A stretch of DNA of 64,000 bases, taken from positions 97,087-161,086 of the IMG/VR virus record IMGVR_UViG_3300029349_000001; one strand, 5' to 3'. Source of the DNA: a virus. A program made the position numbers and the translations under genes. Of the stretch, positions 49,150 through 64,000 are shown one piece after another. The notes under the pieces are model-generated. The model had not been told where the DNA came from, did not search any database, and saw only the letters and a program-made list of their open reading frames with translations. Each line of letters begins with the position of its first letter. The first letter of the stretch is position 1.

Positions 49150-51807
49150 TTAAACTATTGTACTACCAATTGAAACTCTTAGTTGTTCGATACTCTGTTC
49201 ATCTAACTTAGAACCCCAAGTACTCCTTCGACCGTAATATCCGCGAGACATTATAGCGTTTAAAGGATTGTCATTGGTCAGTTCACGCAGATTGCCTGAC
49301 GTATCGACACTACAGACAATATACTTCAACATCGGCTGTTTGTCAAGAGTCTCTTTAATCTGCTTTCGCAAGTTATCGATACTGGATACCTTATCCTTTA
49401 GCGAATAATCATTCTCGATAACTTTTAGCATTTGCTTATTTTCTGGATACAGTCTTGCAACCCAATACGACAGTGTTTGGTACTGGAGATTAGCATTGCG
49501 GATATCCTTGCTGTTAATACCGTTGATCCCTATCTTATGTAGGATTTTAGTCATATGGGCAAAGTAGTCAACTGTCTTAAACTTCTTAATGTCAAATTGG
49601 CTACTATAAATCGTATGACCAAAGAACTCCATAATCATACAAGAGTCGGCCAGAGATACAATTGTTTCATTCTTGATATAATCAGCATAATTCAGACCAA
49701 ACAAATTCAAGATATTGAACAAAAACTGCTTATCTGTAGACACATGATTGTAGTATGTCTCACCACTCTCATTCTTAGAGTATTCAGACTTAGCATAAGT
49801 AATTAGACCATTATAAGTCGCCAAGTCCTTGAATTTTGTATCATAGAACTTTGTGAGTCGATCCTTGAAAAAGTCATTAAATGTTACAAGGTTATAGCCC
49901 TGCTTAATGAGTTGTTCAGCATAACTCTGCTTGATGGCAAAGATATTTGTATCTCCAAACAATTCTTTGGCGAGTTCCTTAGTGTCATCAGACTTAGCCA
50001 GACTGCTAATATCCTTGATTGATGGATAGCCAGCAGTAGCAGCGTATCTAATGATTGGAATATAGACGATATCTTCTTCATCAAGAATACCATCGCGTTC
50101 TTCTTGGTCGCTAATTTCCTTGAGATATGCAGCATCATTCATTAGGTTATCACTAACGATAGACTTTGCACTACTGATATTTCCATGAATCAGAAACAGA
50201 CTATCGCTACTAACAGAACCAACAGAATCTCTGTTACTGTTTTTACGATTAGTACTAGCGATCAGACTCTTATACTTGGAGACAAGTTCAATATTTGATT
50301 CTCCGCCAATATCTGCGATCAGTTTATCAAAACCGTCCGCAGAATCTTCTGGAGTATCACTATCAATCATAAGATACGCAAAACAATCGTGTTGATTGCA
50401 ATAGCGAGTTACGATCTTTTTAGCGGTTTCAGCACCCTTGATATCGCAACGGAAAAATACAATCTTGGCACTCTTGCGAGAGTTATTCCAATAGTATGAA
50501 CCCTTGCCGTTCAAAGTTTCGTGATGAATCTTGTCGGTAAGATATACCATTCTACGACTACGATAACCGGCAGTTCGATAGTTGAAAGCATACAACTGCT
50601 TACTCTTTTTAAAGGTATATTCCAAGTCCTTACCAGACTCTAGTTCATGTGCCTTACCATTAGAATCAGTCCATGATGCTCCTGCTGTCCAACCACCAGC
50701 AAGATCACTAAGATTATAGTATGTCTGATATGCGTCTACCAGACTAGTAGACTTAGCAATCTTTGTGGTCATATCTTCCTTCAATTGAAGGTAAATATCT
50801 TGAGTCTTTTCACGCAAGGCTTTAATGACTTGCTTAGTGTACTGGAGTCCTTCTCGACTAACATCCATTTCCAGTTCACCAATACCGAATTGTATTTCAA
50901 GATACAAGCCTGAATCAAGAATCTCTCTAACAAGACTCTTCCAATTATCAACGTCTGCCTTTCCAAAAGCACGATTCCATGCTTGGATATGATCGGGTTG
51001 ATCGGGCCTATCTTCGCCAATAATCTTACTAGTATCAACAGGATACGCAATATTACCCATAATAGCGATCACGCCGCTGCCGGGACTATTATGTTGACTA
51101 GGATACTTAGTATGTTCGTGCGTAACTCGACCGATCTTCCATCCCTTGCCATCGATCACAACATTATGATGAGAGTATGATCCGTCATTGATAGTAGGAC
51201 ACACACCACCTTCGATGATTGGCTTAAGTCTAAAGTAATGAAACACTCTCTTAGACTTAGATGTAAATTCATGAAAGTCATGCTGCTTTACGGCAAAACT
51301 AATCTCTAGACCATTCGGCTCATTGGTCTGTGTGATAGACACAAGATTAAGACTAGGAACACCGCTTTCATCCATAGCGGCAATATAAGACAACTTCTTA
51401 CCATTAAAGTAAGAGATGGTACTAAAACTCTTGGTGTAAGCAAAGGGACTCTTTGAGCCTAGACCCAAACAGCCGACGAAATCATTACTGTCATTTTTAT
51501 TGCTAGCACCGTATGTGGTATAAAGTTCCTCCATATCTGCCTGACTAAGACCCGTGCCGTAGTCCCTAACCATAAAAGTAGGGCTTGCCTGAGTAGGTAG
51601 AGAAACCTTAAAAGGATTCTTGTTATTGGCAGCAATATGAGCATCATATGCGTTTGTGCTAAGTTCACGAATAACTGCCATGACCTTATCGGAATAGAGA
51701 GAATCCGACAAGATTTTAAACATTTTGCTGGTCTGTGCGATACTAAACTGATTAGCCGACTGAATACCAACGGAATGAATCTCAACTGTGCGATCTGCCA
51801 ACTTCAT
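49150..51807 (-). CDS. rIIA: rIIA-like protein (GHKL ATPase N-terminus)
   Basis: FKILSDSLYSDK..RELSTNAYDAH, DYGTG, GLGSKSPFAY; start at MKLADRT with GGAG RBS. Confidence 0.9.
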   Translation of the reverse strand: MKLADRTVEIHSVGIQSANQFSIAQTSKMFKILSDSLYSDKVMAVIRELSTNAYDAHIAANNKNPFKVSLPTQASPTFMVRDYGTGLSQADMEELYTTYGASNKNDSNDFVGCLGLGSKSPFAYTKSFSTISYFNGKKLSYIAAMDESGVPSLNLVSITQTNEPNGLEISFAVKQHDFHEFTSKSKRVFHYFRLKPIIEGGVCPTINDGSYSHHNVVIDGKGWKIGRVTHEHTKYPSQHNSPGSGVIAIMGNIAYPVDTSKIIGEDRPDQPDHIQAWNRAFGKADVDNWKSLVREILDSGLYLEIQFGIGELEMDVSREGLQYTKQVIKALREKTQDIYLQLKEDMTTKIAKSTSLVDAYQTYYNLSDLAGGWTAGASWTDSNGKAHELESGKDLEYTFKKSKQLYAFNYRTAGYRSRRMVYLTDKIHHETLNGKGSYYWNNSRKSAKIVFFRCDIKGAETAKKIVTRYCNQHDCFAYLMIDSDTPEDSADGFDKLIADIGGESNIELVSKYKSLIASTNRKNSNRDSVGSVSSDSLFLIHGNISSAKSIVSDNLMNDAAYLKEISDQEERDGILDEEDIVYIPIIRYAATAGYPSIKDISSLAKSDDTKELAKELFGDTNIFAIKQSYAEQLIKQGYNLVTFNDFFKDRLTKFYDTKFKDLATYNGLITYAKSEYSKNESGETYYNHVSTDKQFLFNILNLFGLNYADYIKNETIVSLADSCMIMEFFGHTIYSSQFDIKKFKTVDYFAHMTKILHKIGINGINSKDIRNANLQYQTLSYWVARLYPENKQMLKVIENDYSLKDKVSSIDNLRKQIKETLDKQPMLKYIVCSVDTSGNLRELTNDNPLNAIMSRGYYGRRSTWGSKLDEQSIEQLRVSIGSTIV

Positions 51808-51850
51808 CTGTAATTCTCCAAAAAAGTTCTGATTCCTGTGTGATGCTATG

Positions 51851-51879
51851 AGTATAACATCGGCAATCGGTCTTGTCAA
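51851..51879 (-). promoter_or_regulatory. Sigma70-type promoter for rIIA/rIIB
   Basis: TTGACA-N17-TATACT. Confidence 0.8.
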
Positions 51880-54506: not shown

Positions 54507-54959
54507 ATGACAAAAAACTATACAATTCCTTACTTAAAAGTCATAGTAAAAAAATCTAAGTCGATCAGAGAAGTATTATTTAATCTCAATATGGCTACTG
54601 CTGGAGGCAATTACCAAACTATTAAAAAGAAAATTGCTGAATACAATATTGACACTTCTCATTTTTCTGGTCAAGCATGGAATAAAGGTAAAAAACTAGG
54701 CCCAAAAAGATCTATAGAAGATTATCTTTCTAATAAGAAACCTATACAAAGTTGGAAATTAAAAAGAAGATTATTACAAGATAAATTGTTTGAACCCAAA
54801 TGTTATGAGTGCGATAATGAATTTTGGTTAGATCAACCAATACCACTAGAGTTGCATCATATAGATGGAGATAATACTAATAATAACTTGTCAAATCTAA
54901 CTATACTTTGCCCAAATTGTCATGCCCTGACTGATAATTATCGCGGAAAAAATAAATAG
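54507..54959 (+). CDS. Free-standing HNH homing-type endonuclease
   Basis: CYEC..LELHHIDGDNTNNNLSNLTILCPNCH; antisense to surrounding genes. Confidence 0.9.
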   Translation: MTKNYTIPYLKVIVKKSKSIREVLFNLNMATAGGNYQTIKKKIAEYNIDTSHFSGQAWNKGKKLGPKRSIEDYLSNKKPIQSWKLKRRLLQDKLFEPKCYECDNEFWLDQPIPLELHHIDGDNTNNNLSNLTILCPNCHALTDNYRGKNK

Positions 54960-55225
54960 GAGCGGTGGGAGTCGAACCCACACTTGAAGGATTTTCTTAC
55001 TACTATAGTTTTCACTACCCTTTCGGTTTGTAGTCTGGACTTTATCTTAACCATAACTTTCGTCTTAGGTTCCTGCCGTCAAGTCTCTACACCTTCATAT
55101 TTCTATGCTTGGCTCGGTATTAGCAGTTAAGCCTCCACCGAATTTGACAGGTTCTACTTTAAAGATTTCTCTTTAAGCACTCAAATTGTATAAGTCCTTT
55201 GTCTCTGCCTTTGGACTACGCTCCC
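54957..55225 (-). tRNA. trnL: tRNA-Leu(UAA), intron-split
   Basis: Exons 55225-55192 and 54995-54957 splice to GGGAGCGTAGTCCAAAGGCAGAGACAAAGGA-CTTAAAA-TCCTTCAAGTGTGGGTTCGACTCCCACCGCTCCTA. Confidence 0.92.
54996..55191 (-). mobile_element. Group I intron (IC3-like, 196 nt, no ORF)
   Basis: Follows exon U and ends in G; IGS GAG; P3 CCUGUC/GGCAGG; P4 UUCGGU/ACCGAG; R GUAGAGACUUGA; S AAGAUAAAGUCC. Confidence 0.92.
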
Positions 55226-55315
55226 AAATAACACCGACCACAAGATCATAGTAAGAGGTTACTCTGTTGTGTGCCTCTGTTCAGATCGTTGTAGTCAGTG
55301 TATTATGGAATTTAA

Positions 55316-55597
55316 TCAGCCGTTAGTGTGAGCCTTGATTCGACGCACAATGTCGGCCATAGCCTCAACACTGTCAACCGTCTTGGTTGGCTTTGCACGT
55401 TCCATCGCAGGAAGTTCAACACCCTTAGCCTTAAGGGCTTCCTTAGTACGAGCATAACGAGCCATTGTACTAGCAACCTTCTGACCCGTCTTACTAGCAA
55501 TCTCAGCATAAGTCTTGCTAGAAAACACAGCCTCAAGGAACTGCTCATCAGAACAACGGATACGCTTCTGCTTCTCTGTAGAAATAACGTCTGCCAT
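55316..55597 (-). CDS. Small HTH-like DNA-binding protein
   Basis: TYAEIASKTGQKVAS; GGAGGTG RBS. Confidence 0.7.
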   Translation of the reverse strand: MADVISTEKQKRIRCSDEQFLEAVFSSKTYAEIASKTGQKVASTMARYARTKEALKAKGVELPAMERAKPTKTVDSVEAMADIVRRIKAHTNG

Positions 55598-55795: not shown

Positions 55796-56182
55796 TCAAT
55801 CCCTAGCGAAGCATACGCACCAATACAGTCGATTGTGTCTATCATAGGACGCAGCACAACCTATCCTGTTGTAAGAAGCACTCATAATATTAGTTCTATG
55901 ACCGGGACTCAAAAGCCAACTTTTCATCACTGCTTTTTCTGTGGGTTGTCCCCAGGCTATATTTTCCGCAGCAGCTTTAAATCCTAGGTTTAAAATATTA
56001 CGCATCTTACTATGTACCATAGCACCATTAGCCGACATGGTTTCTACCCAATCATATGCGTAAAACATTAATTTTTCATCCATTATTAACGGATCAATTT
56101 TCCAGAGCCAAGATCCACTTTTTCTAGCATCATTATGCAAATCTACCAAGATCTTCATATTTGGTAAATATAAATTTTTCAT
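55796..56182 (-). CDS. CAP/SCP domain protein
   Basis: LHNDAR, AENIAWGQ, WLLSPGHRTNIM, YWCVCF. Confidence 0.9.
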   Translation of the reverse strand: MKNLYLPNMKILVDLHNDARKSGSWLWKIDPLIMDEKLMFYAYDWVETMSANGAMVHSKMRNILNLGFKAAAENIAWGQPTEKAVMKSWLLSPGHRTNIMSASYNRIGCAASYDRHNRLYWCVCFARD

Positions 56183-57510: not shown

Positions 57511-57566
57511 GAGAATTTTTTAGTGGTTGTAATGTGTATATACTTATATTAACCGGAGAAATTACT

Positions 57567-58571
57567 ATGACCATATATCAAAAATTAGGACTTGTATTGA
57601 TTTGTTTATTACTACTATTCCACCATAGTAAAAATACACCAAATATAGACCATATCCCCCAACCCATTAATAGGCCTGTTATAGTTGAGCCTAAAGTAGA
57701 ATTGTCTTTAGAAGAAGTACTAAATACTATTGACGAAAACAGCATCAAACAAAATATAGCAATATTAAGTAGTAAGGAGTTGTGCGGAAGAGGTACTGGA
57801 ACTAATGGGGCTGTTTTGGCTAGTAAATTAATACAAGAGCAATTAACTAAGTTAAAAATTCCATATTCGATACAGAACTTTAAGGCTAGAGGTCTTGATG
57901 CTCATAATGTAATAGGATATATTGAGTCCACAAAAAATAAAAATGATATTATAGTGATAGGCGCCCACTACGATCATCTTGGTGGTAATAATGAGCGATT
58001 TTTTCCCGGTGCTGATGATAATGCTAGTGGTGTTGCTGGTGTGCTAGAAATAGCCAAAGCACTATCAGCATATAAAGATAAGCTAAATAAGACTATATCT
58101 ATACAATTTTATTCAGCAGAAGAGATGGGTTTGATAGGTAGTTCTTTCTATTGTAAAAATCCTATACTTCCACTGAATGAACCAGATATTAACAAACATA
58201 TCGCAATGATTAATCTAGATATGATAGGATATTTAAAAACCAAATACGGCATCCATGACAACTGCACAACATGGAAATTAGATAAAGAGTACAGAACCTT
58301 TAATAATTATAGACTGACTCTAGACCTCAAAGAGACAGTCAAAGATCTATCTAAGAAGTATCCGTTTGCAAATAATATTAGTGGATATAGACCGGGAGGA
58401 AGTGACCATGCCCCATTTTATAACCAAGGTATTCCTGTAATTTTCTTACACACAGGATTACATCCGTATTATCATAAAACAACAGATACGCCAGACAAAC
58501 TTAATTATACTGGGATTAAGAATATTGCTAAATTAGCAACAGAAATTATTCTGCAAATAGATAAGAATTAA
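57567..58571 (+). CDS. M28 family peptidase
   Basis: GAHYDH, GADDNASG, AEEMG, NLDMIG, SDHAPF, YHKTTD. Confidence 0.93.
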   Translation: MTIYQKLGLVLICLLLLFHHSKNTPNIDHIPQPINRPVIVEPKVELSLEEVLNTIDENSIKQNIAILSSKELCGRGTGTNGAVLASKLIQEQLTKLKIPYSIQNFKARGLDAHNVIGYIESTKNKNDIIVIGAHYDHLGGNNERFFPGADDNASGVAGVLEIAKALSAYKDKLNKTISIQFYSAEEMGLIGSSFYCKNPILPLNEPDINKHIAMINLDMIGYLKTKYGIHDNCTTWKLDKEYRTFNNYRLTLDLKETVKDLSKKYPFANNISGYRPGGSDHAPFYNQGIPVIFLHTGLHPYYHKTTDTPDKLNYTGIKNIAKLATEIILQIDKN

Positions 58572-63634: not shown

Positions 63635-63827
63635 TAGATTATTTTTTTGTATTTTTTTTATCAGATAAAGGTATATCTGTGAACTTACTAAGTTTTTTTG
63701 TTAGTTTATTAAAATACTTATCTTCTATCAGATTTTCAATATCTTTGTCTTTTTGTTTTTTAAATTTTTTAAGTGCTTTTTTCCAGAAACTCATTCATTT
63801 TTCCTTAATATTAATGATGATTTTAAA

Positions 63828-64000
63828 GTGGAGACGAGGGGAGTCGAACCCCTGTCTTGAGATATTTCTAATTACATCTTCTACAAGTTTATTTTGTTCA
63901 TAAGTTTTAAGAAAGATTAAAGTACAAACAACATTCATCTTTCCGTACCAACTAATCTCAGGCTAGAACCCGTTGGCTATTCTAGCAGCCGAAGGATTTT
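63828..64000 (-). ncRNA. ssrA: tmRNA, 3' portion (runs off window)
   Basis: ..AAACTTGTAGAAG..CAAGACAGGGGTTCGACTCCCCTCGTCTCCAC matches the tmRNA 3' domain; no anticodon arm adjacent. Confidence 0.8.

Follow-up and report, generated by a model that had tools for sequence, protein, structure and literature searches.

Within the window analysed here, that is, the whole 64,000-nt stretch from position 97,087 to position 161,086 of the IMG/VR virus record IMGVR_UViG_3300029349_000001, a group I intron of 196 nt resides in a tRNA gene, and this locus raises the question of whether the element is an exceptionally small, perhaps minimal natural ribozyme or a common representative of a larger group. 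The window is phage DNA and encodes an rIIA-like protein (49150-51879). We consider it highly probable that the group I intron splits a phage tRNA(UAA), is spliced out of the pre-tRNA and has spread, most likely with help in trans by an HNH endonuclease. When the 12 kb surrounding the site were compared by megablast with 50,697 phage records, no match was obtained, and thus the phage itself is absent from that collection. Genes in the vicinity of the tRNA encode a CAP/cysteine-rich secretory family protein (55796-56182, minus strand; PF00188, E 2.6e-16) and an M28 peptidase (57534-58571, plus strand; PF04389, E 1.8e-41). The 3' part of a tmRNA gene, cut by the end of the window, is located at 63826-64000 on the minus strand (RF00023, 58.8 bits) and is either encoded by the phage or indicative of a phage-host junction.

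The presence of a 196-nt group I intron had been proposed in a sequence-only reading of the DNA, and this was borne out by the match to RF00028 and by the junctions that ARAGORN identified. RF00028 matched 55014-55201 on the minus strand over the full model (1-253) with 56.0 bits and an E value of 1.6e-11, the match supporting our interpretation and its narrow margin of 6 bits over the gathering cut-off of 50 bits being a point against it. Ordinary tRNA scanning of the window found nothing. In its intron mode, ARAGORN returned a tRNA with the anticodon UAA and an intron of exactly 196 nt within the junction gactt/intron/aaaat, and when the spliced and the unspliced sequence were submitted, the cloverleaf was rebuilt only upon removal of exactly these 196 nt. 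The insertion is located between U34 and A35 of the tRNA(UAA) with the junction type CUU/a...g/AAAA. U55192, the -1 residue of the 5' exon, pairs with the G at intron position 10 to give the U.G wobble in P1, and the column of the terminal G is invariant across the aligned family (n = 29). The boundaries from ARAGORN, the U at -1 and the terminal G thus agree with the splice sites as they had been proposed. Our own covariance model, R1, matched the window intron over its full length with 226 bits. The element is a genuine, structurally complete group I intron, whose parts and neighbours are compiled in Table 1.

Table 1. Positions of the intron, its structural elements, the tRNA exons and the neighbouring endonuclease gene in the window.
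Feature	Position	Strand	Details
Group I intron	54996-55191	-	196 nt, no ORF; RF00028, ARAGORN, covariance model R1, covariation
Intron ends	55191; 54996	-	first base A (55191); terminal (omega) G (54996)
tRNA(UAA) 5' exon	55192-55225	-	34 nt, G1 to U34; ARAGORN
tRNA(UAA) 3' exon	54957-54995	-	39 nt, A35 to discriminator A73; ARAGORN
P1	55179-55182 (intron bases 10-13)	-	paired with exon ACUU, the last four bases of the 5' exon
P2	55159-55176	-	7 bp; L2 GAAA at 55166-55169
P3 with P3'	55146-55151 with 55072-55077	-	core pseudoknot together with P7
P4-P5-P6 domain	55091-55141	-	P4 6 bp; P5 3 bp with 6-nt loop; P6 3 bp; P6a 4 bp with GAAA loop
P7	55038-55085	-	GACUU 55081-55085, AAGUC 55038-55042; encloses P3' and P8
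P8	55051-55069	-	canonical 11-nt tetraloop receptor: CCUAAG 55064-55069, UAUGG 55051-55055; GAAA loop
P9, branched	54999-55034	-	5-bp stem ACUAC/GUAGU
P9a		-	CC/GG; GAAA at 55021-55024
P9b		-	UAGU/ACUA; GAAA at 55010-55013
HNH endonuclease gene, free-standing	54507-54959	+	150 aa; PHROG 10822 'HNH endonuclease', E 3.9e-46; Pfam HNH match weak

The fold was evaluated on an alignment (n = 29) in which the window intron is joined by 28 non-redundant relatives taken from viral contigs and from a huge-phage record, and pairs were counted on a hand-drawn structure that includes the P3/P7 pseudoknot. Pairing and covariation are far above chance: standard pairs occur in 94.8% of 1,555 cells, both partners vary in 28 of the 54 pairs, pairing dropped to 26-42% when the partners were shifted by 1-3 columns as a control, and the observed covariation score was reached by none of 500 shuffles. 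The pairs of P1 recur across the family as U.G (27/29), U-A (26/29) and C-G (27/29); the G-G mismatch that P1 shows at exon position -5, and that both aligned jumbo-phage relatives share, has to be counted against our interpretation. All seven pairs of P2 change on both sides, and the G.AA positions of L2 are invariant. P3, in which CCUGUC can be read to pair with GACGGCAGG, is paired in 100% of the cells with both-sided changes in four of its six pairs; P7 is similarly paired throughout, its last pair being A-U in 19 and U-A in 10 sequences. The core of P4 is invariant, P5 and P6a covary, and P5 forms a 3-bp hairpin without any extension (no P5abc). In the branched P9, all four pairs of P9b change on both sides at 100% pairing, and the stem is 98.6% paired with two covarying pairs. 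The first AAA of the 3' exon is predicted to be able to pair with intron residues U7-U9, forming P10. P2, P3, P4, P5, P6a, P8 and the branched P9 are also recovered in the minimum-free-energy fold (-42.5 kcal/mol, z -2.3).

A P8 resembling the 11-nt receptor is present in all 26 introns with GAAA in L2 and in none of the three with GGAA, which possess a plain P8 hairpin instead; the closing pair of the receptor covaries as well (C-G in 15, U-A in 14). The motifs previously listed for this intron, i.e. the GAAA loop of L2, CCUAAG...UAUGG in P8, GACUU/AAGUC in P7, the short P5 and the branched P9 with two GAAA loops, can all be read in the sequence. Covariation and the co-occurrence of L2 and P8 thus indicate that this structural description is correct, and they support the proposed clamp between the L2 GAAA and the P8 receptor.

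The tRNA into which the intron is inserted differs from canonical bacterial tRNA-Leu. Its variable loop comprises 5 nt, its D stem is limited to 3 bp with a conserved C13-A22 mismatch, the discriminator is A73, no CCA is encoded, and splicing gives CUUAAAA in the anticodon loop. The class II feature of bacterial tRNA-Leu, a long variable arm, is lacking, which is a matter of the exons and not of the intron, and a leucine identity is thus suggested by the anticodon and A73 only. Based on the 3-bp D stem, the C13-A22 mismatch, the short variable loop and the marginal Rfam score, the locus might be regarded as a decayed relic, an intron that no longer splices within a dead tRNA gene. However, the window intron keeps every conserved core position (76 invariant columns) and every pair of the model forms in its sequence. 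Furthermore, its sequence is 98% identical to that of the intron at locus L099 (IMGVR_UViG_3300023184_000029), and the short-armed tRNA(UAA) recurs in at least ten distinct phage sequences (L099, L035, L088, L116, L075, L014, L093, L111, L051 and L085) with compensatory changes in the acceptor and D stems, so that we regard decay as highly improbable. UUA is the commonest leucine codon in the long ORFs of the window (33%), at an overall GC content of 35%. This codon usage and the compensatory stem changes among the relatives point to selection for a working molecule, and the spliced tRNA(UAA) accordingly appears to be under selection. A scan for promoters and terminators around the tRNA yielded nothing informative.

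For catalysis and tertiary docking we infer the following course of events. The pre-tRNA would be transcribed with the intron inside, and ACUU of the anticodon arm would pair with intron bases 10-13 to form P1, positioning the U.G wobble at the 5' splice site. The core would be built from P3-P8-P7 and P4-P6 and would be clamped by docking of the L2 GAAA into the 11-nt receptor in P8; in addition, a GAAA loop of P9 probably docks on P5. By homology, free guanosine would then attack after U34, whereupon the terminal G would take the guanosine site, P10 (AAA with U7-U9) would align the 3' exon, and the exons would be joined to a 73-nt tRNA reading UUA/UUG. It might be argued that the intron is genuine and yet requires a protein helper of host or phage origin, self-splicing being inefficient on its own. 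The very short P5, the small peripheral elements and the AT-rich RNA (38% GC), which may lower stability, would be in line with such a dependence, and many introns of group I are dependent on chaperones in vivo (Hausner et al. 2014, PMC3984707). On the other hand, the window intron combines a GAAA loop and a canonical 11-nt receptor with further GNRA loops. This is also the stabilising scheme of the Azoarcus intron. The latter self-splices at 37 °C in vitro (PMC13168695), and no maturase-like ORF is present within the window intron; such a dependence on a helper is therefore given a small chance.

The remaining issue is whether a length of 196 nt sets the intron apart. The Anabaena intron comprises 249 nt. 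The Azoarcus intron is 205 nt long (PMC13168695), and hence the lengths with which the window intron had been compared were fairly chosen. Scanning IMG/VR for exact matches to a core motif of 20 bases retrieved at least 120 viral contigs, and among the matches listed ARAGORN delimited 88 intron-bearing tRNA genes, including that of the window and two phage-database loci. The 70 distinct phage-family tRNA introns among the matches listed have a median length of 202 nt (interquartile range 196-210 nt), placing 196 nt at the 25th percentile, and under strict splice-site criteria the minimum among the matches listed is 184 nt. Depending on the strictness of the splice-site filter, at least 15-21 distinct viral introns are 196 nt or shorter, and more exist. 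Introns of exactly 196 nt that are 96.4-98.0% identical to that of the window occur in four IMG/VR contigs (L099, L012, L028 and L101) and in a fifth, L033, and a more divergent intron in L091 is of the same length. Three relatives are shorter and well delimited, with canonical exons, U at -1 and a terminal G: two in tRNA-Lys(UUU) genes (L042, 184 nt; L113, 185 nt) and one in a tRNA-Leu(UAA) gene (L089, 185 nt). All three lack the 11-nt receptor; thus, the clade of the window intron, which is common to several phages, is the shortest class with a receptor-like P8 in the sample. The exact canonical receptor motif is also found in a 209-nt intron (L043).

For bacterial tRNA introns that share this core motif, the median length is 235 nt (interquartile range 221-248 nt; n = 110 among the matches listed), and only three of these 110 do not exceed 196 nt. 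Overall, the family tends to be more compact in phages than in bacteria; correspondingly, among the matches listed, the tRNA introns of the viral contigs (L005-L124, median 202 nt) are shorter than those of the bacterial contigs (L125-L244, median 235 nt). One might still regard the window intron as exceptionally small and possibly minimal, standing apart from the known group I ribozymes, since it is 9 nt shorter than the Azoarcus intron with its 205 nt, few of the listed bacterial relatives are as short, and it belongs to the shortest sampled class that keeps an 11-nt-receptor-like P8. This is, however, extremely unlikely given the viral length distribution and the 184-185-nt relatives described above; moreover, gut jumbo ('Jug') phages possess 2,513 group I introns with an average of about 206 nt (PMC12880540). 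Of the earlier proposal of a minimal natural ribozyme there remains a compact, ORF-less intron with a full core and full tertiary motifs, and what falls away is the minimality, as the intron lies in the lower quartile of its phage family and has shorter relatives. The comparison of lengths that had been called for consequently shows 196 nt not to be unusual, and the window intron is a typical member of a populous phage family, not one of record-small size. A literature search for 'smallest group I intron' gave no match.

Several seemingly shorter candidates were rejected. In the R1 alignment, capsid-gene introns of 157-161 nt were suggested for L004 (KT997847) and for the two IMG/VR contigs L040 and L079, but with these boundaries the capsid frame fails to close, and the stretch that R1 assigned to the 3' exon forms a GAAA-capped P9 hairpin. 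Since closure of the frame requires 3' splice sites at more downstream positions, these introns are not counted as shorter; with the downstream sites, capsid intron 1 comprises 180-198 nt, and the 3' end of the second intron is ambiguous. ARAGORN calls of the type 'Ala ggc, 162 nt' were treated as mis-delimited, as were those with a base other than U at the end of the 5' exon or other than G at the end of the intron, and the calls 'Tyr(ata), 196 nt' are tRNA(UAA) genes whose intron really is 198 nt long. As a separate observation, the capsid gene of the deep-sea podovirus KT997847.1 (L004) is split by two group I introns at 1450-1660 and 2159-2400 (Rfam 78 and 77 bits); in the record, each piece is entered as a 'capsid protein' CDS of its own, and the 3' splice sites are ambiguous.

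With respect to its spread, the ORF-less intron would most likely be helped in trans by the adjacent free-standing HNH endonuclease. The endonuclease gene and the tRNA gene run towards each other, and the stop codon of the former shares the final 3 nt of the latter. Homologues of this HNH protein are encoded 0-139 bp from an intron-bearing tRNA in 22 of the 123 other loci listed, with three arrangements represented: downstream and convergent, downstream and co-directional, and upstream. In the huge phage LR756511.1 (L003, 874-1660), a tRNA-Leu(UAA) gene contains a 700-nt intron with a 189-aa ORF (946-1515) inside; this ORF includes a region homologous to the window HNH protein (50% identical) and is an intron-encoded version of the same endonuclease. 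Taken together, the HNH protein of the window is likely to be the homing partner of the intron.

Across phages, an intron identity of 96-98% is accompanied by only 59-79% identity in the flanks. In L012, L028 and L101, the intron is 96.4% identical to that of the window and the flanks are 76-77% identical to window positions 54700-55500, with the same HNH neighbour in a syntenic position. The gene that hosts the intron in these three is a long-armed tRNA-Leu with exons only 71% identical to those of the window, and there was either an exchange of tRNA exons around an unchanged intron or a transfer of the intron between two kinds of tRNA(UAA) gene. This pattern would fit an intron whose mobility, or whose conservation, does not depend on its exons, helped by the neighbouring endonuclease. 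In the same relatives, amino-acid identity of the HNH protein is 62% at an intron identity of 96%, which is counted against our interpretation; as divergence is far greater for the endonuclease than for the intron, they do not have to be transferred as one. Beyond the interpretation given at the outset, it might tentatively be speculated, as a possibility we hold to be somewhat doubtful, that phage tRNA genes host a streamlined and actively homing lineage of the classical tRNA-Leu intron which is systematically shorter than its relatives in bacteria, occupies two kinds of tRNA(UAA) gene at one syntenic locus and spreads by means of the HNH endonuclease.

The same core motif is present in at least 120 bacterial contigs from Alphaproteobacteria, Acidobacteriota, Burkholderiales and other groups, and among the matches listed, ARAGORN assigned a Leu(UAA) label with the junction CUU/...g/AAAA to 51 of 110 bacterial intron-bearing tRNAs. 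In bacterial tRNA genes, 5,292 such introns have been mapped, the classical type being Leu.3Ug (Williams 2020, bioRxiv 10.1101/2020.01.27.920355), and the window intron shows the corresponding insertion between positions 34 and 35 (gactt/a...g/aaaat). The trnL intron of plastids and cyanobacteria belongs to subgroup IC3 (PMC11835236). The periphery of IC3 is characterised by the lack of P5abc and by tetraloop-receptor contacts of L2 with P8 and of L9 with P5; what is observed here is a 3-bp P5 hairpin and the co-occurrence of L2 GAAA and P8 receptor in 26 of 26 introns, and the window intron may be considered a candidate for this subgroup. R1 aligned over its full length in phage relatives. 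Homologous introns with the same site and fold are present in the huge phage LR756501 (205 nt, 77.6% identical by blastn) and in Agrobacterium phage Atu_ph07 (MF403008.1), where the intron extends to 278 nt with a 49-nt insertion in P8. The stretch of the latter record that contains the tRNA-Leu(UAA) with this 278-nt group I intron (L002, 1460-1821) has no annotated feature. At E <= 0.001, Rfam missed the homologous introns in L001-L003, which were found by the family-specific model R1. No report of group I introns in phage tRNA genes was found in the literature searched, and a search for permuted intron-exon work with metagenomic introns yielded nothing specific.

Taken on its own, the window intron adds one more sequence to a large and already sampled family and is neither the smallest nor structurally new. 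As a candidate scaffold for circular RNAs, a use that had been envisaged for it, it could be replaced by hundreds of similar natural sequences that would serve equally. The wider pattern may be of interest to RNA engineers and to those studying mobile elements. Phage tRNA introns among the matches listed are concentrated at lengths of 184-210 nt with a catalytic core that is still complete, and they thus provide a multitude of small natural scaffolds that can be set beside those of Azoarcus and Anabaena. In addition, the recurrent pairing of the intron with a free-standing HNH gene would represent a tractable case of cooperation at a tRNA target. If the streamlined homing lineage considered above proved true, the 196-nt clade would be the shortest sampled class with an 11-nt-receptor-like clamp and a practical small scaffold.

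Among known systems, the closest counterparts are the introns of bacterial tRNA-Leu(UAA) genes, with which the window intron shares the site between U34 and A35, the U at -1, the terminal G, the core GGUGUAGAGACUNGACGG and the lack of both an ORF and P5abc. It differs from them in its length (196 nt compared to a median of 235 nt, n = 110 listed), in being phage-borne and in the short variable loop of its host tRNA. Like the window intron, the Azoarcus intron is a small intron in a tRNA anticodon loop, and both possess a GAAA loop on P2, a receptor in P8, GNRA loops in P9 and a short P5. In contrast, the window intron resides in a different tRNA at a different insertion position, is 9 nt shorter and has a branched P9, and whereas the Azoarcus intron is solved and well characterised, the structure and activity of the window intron are predicted ones. 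Cyanophage psbA/F-CphI is a case of collaborative homing. The general scheme of such homing in trans has been reviewed (Hausner et al. 2014, PMC3984707) and would be paralleled here by an ORF-less intron that directly adjoins a free-standing HNH gene, an arrangement which recurs in relatives and is intron-internal in one of them; however, the window HNH protein is much more diverged between relatives than the intron. The introns of the Jug phages (PMC12880540) are similarly abundant, ORF-less, about 206 nt in length and located in large phages with many stand-alone HNH genes, and in 37 of 76 cases their splicing was confirmed by metatranscriptomes. As far as described there, these introns interrupt protein-coding genes (terL, nrdD), whereas that of the window interrupts a tRNA.
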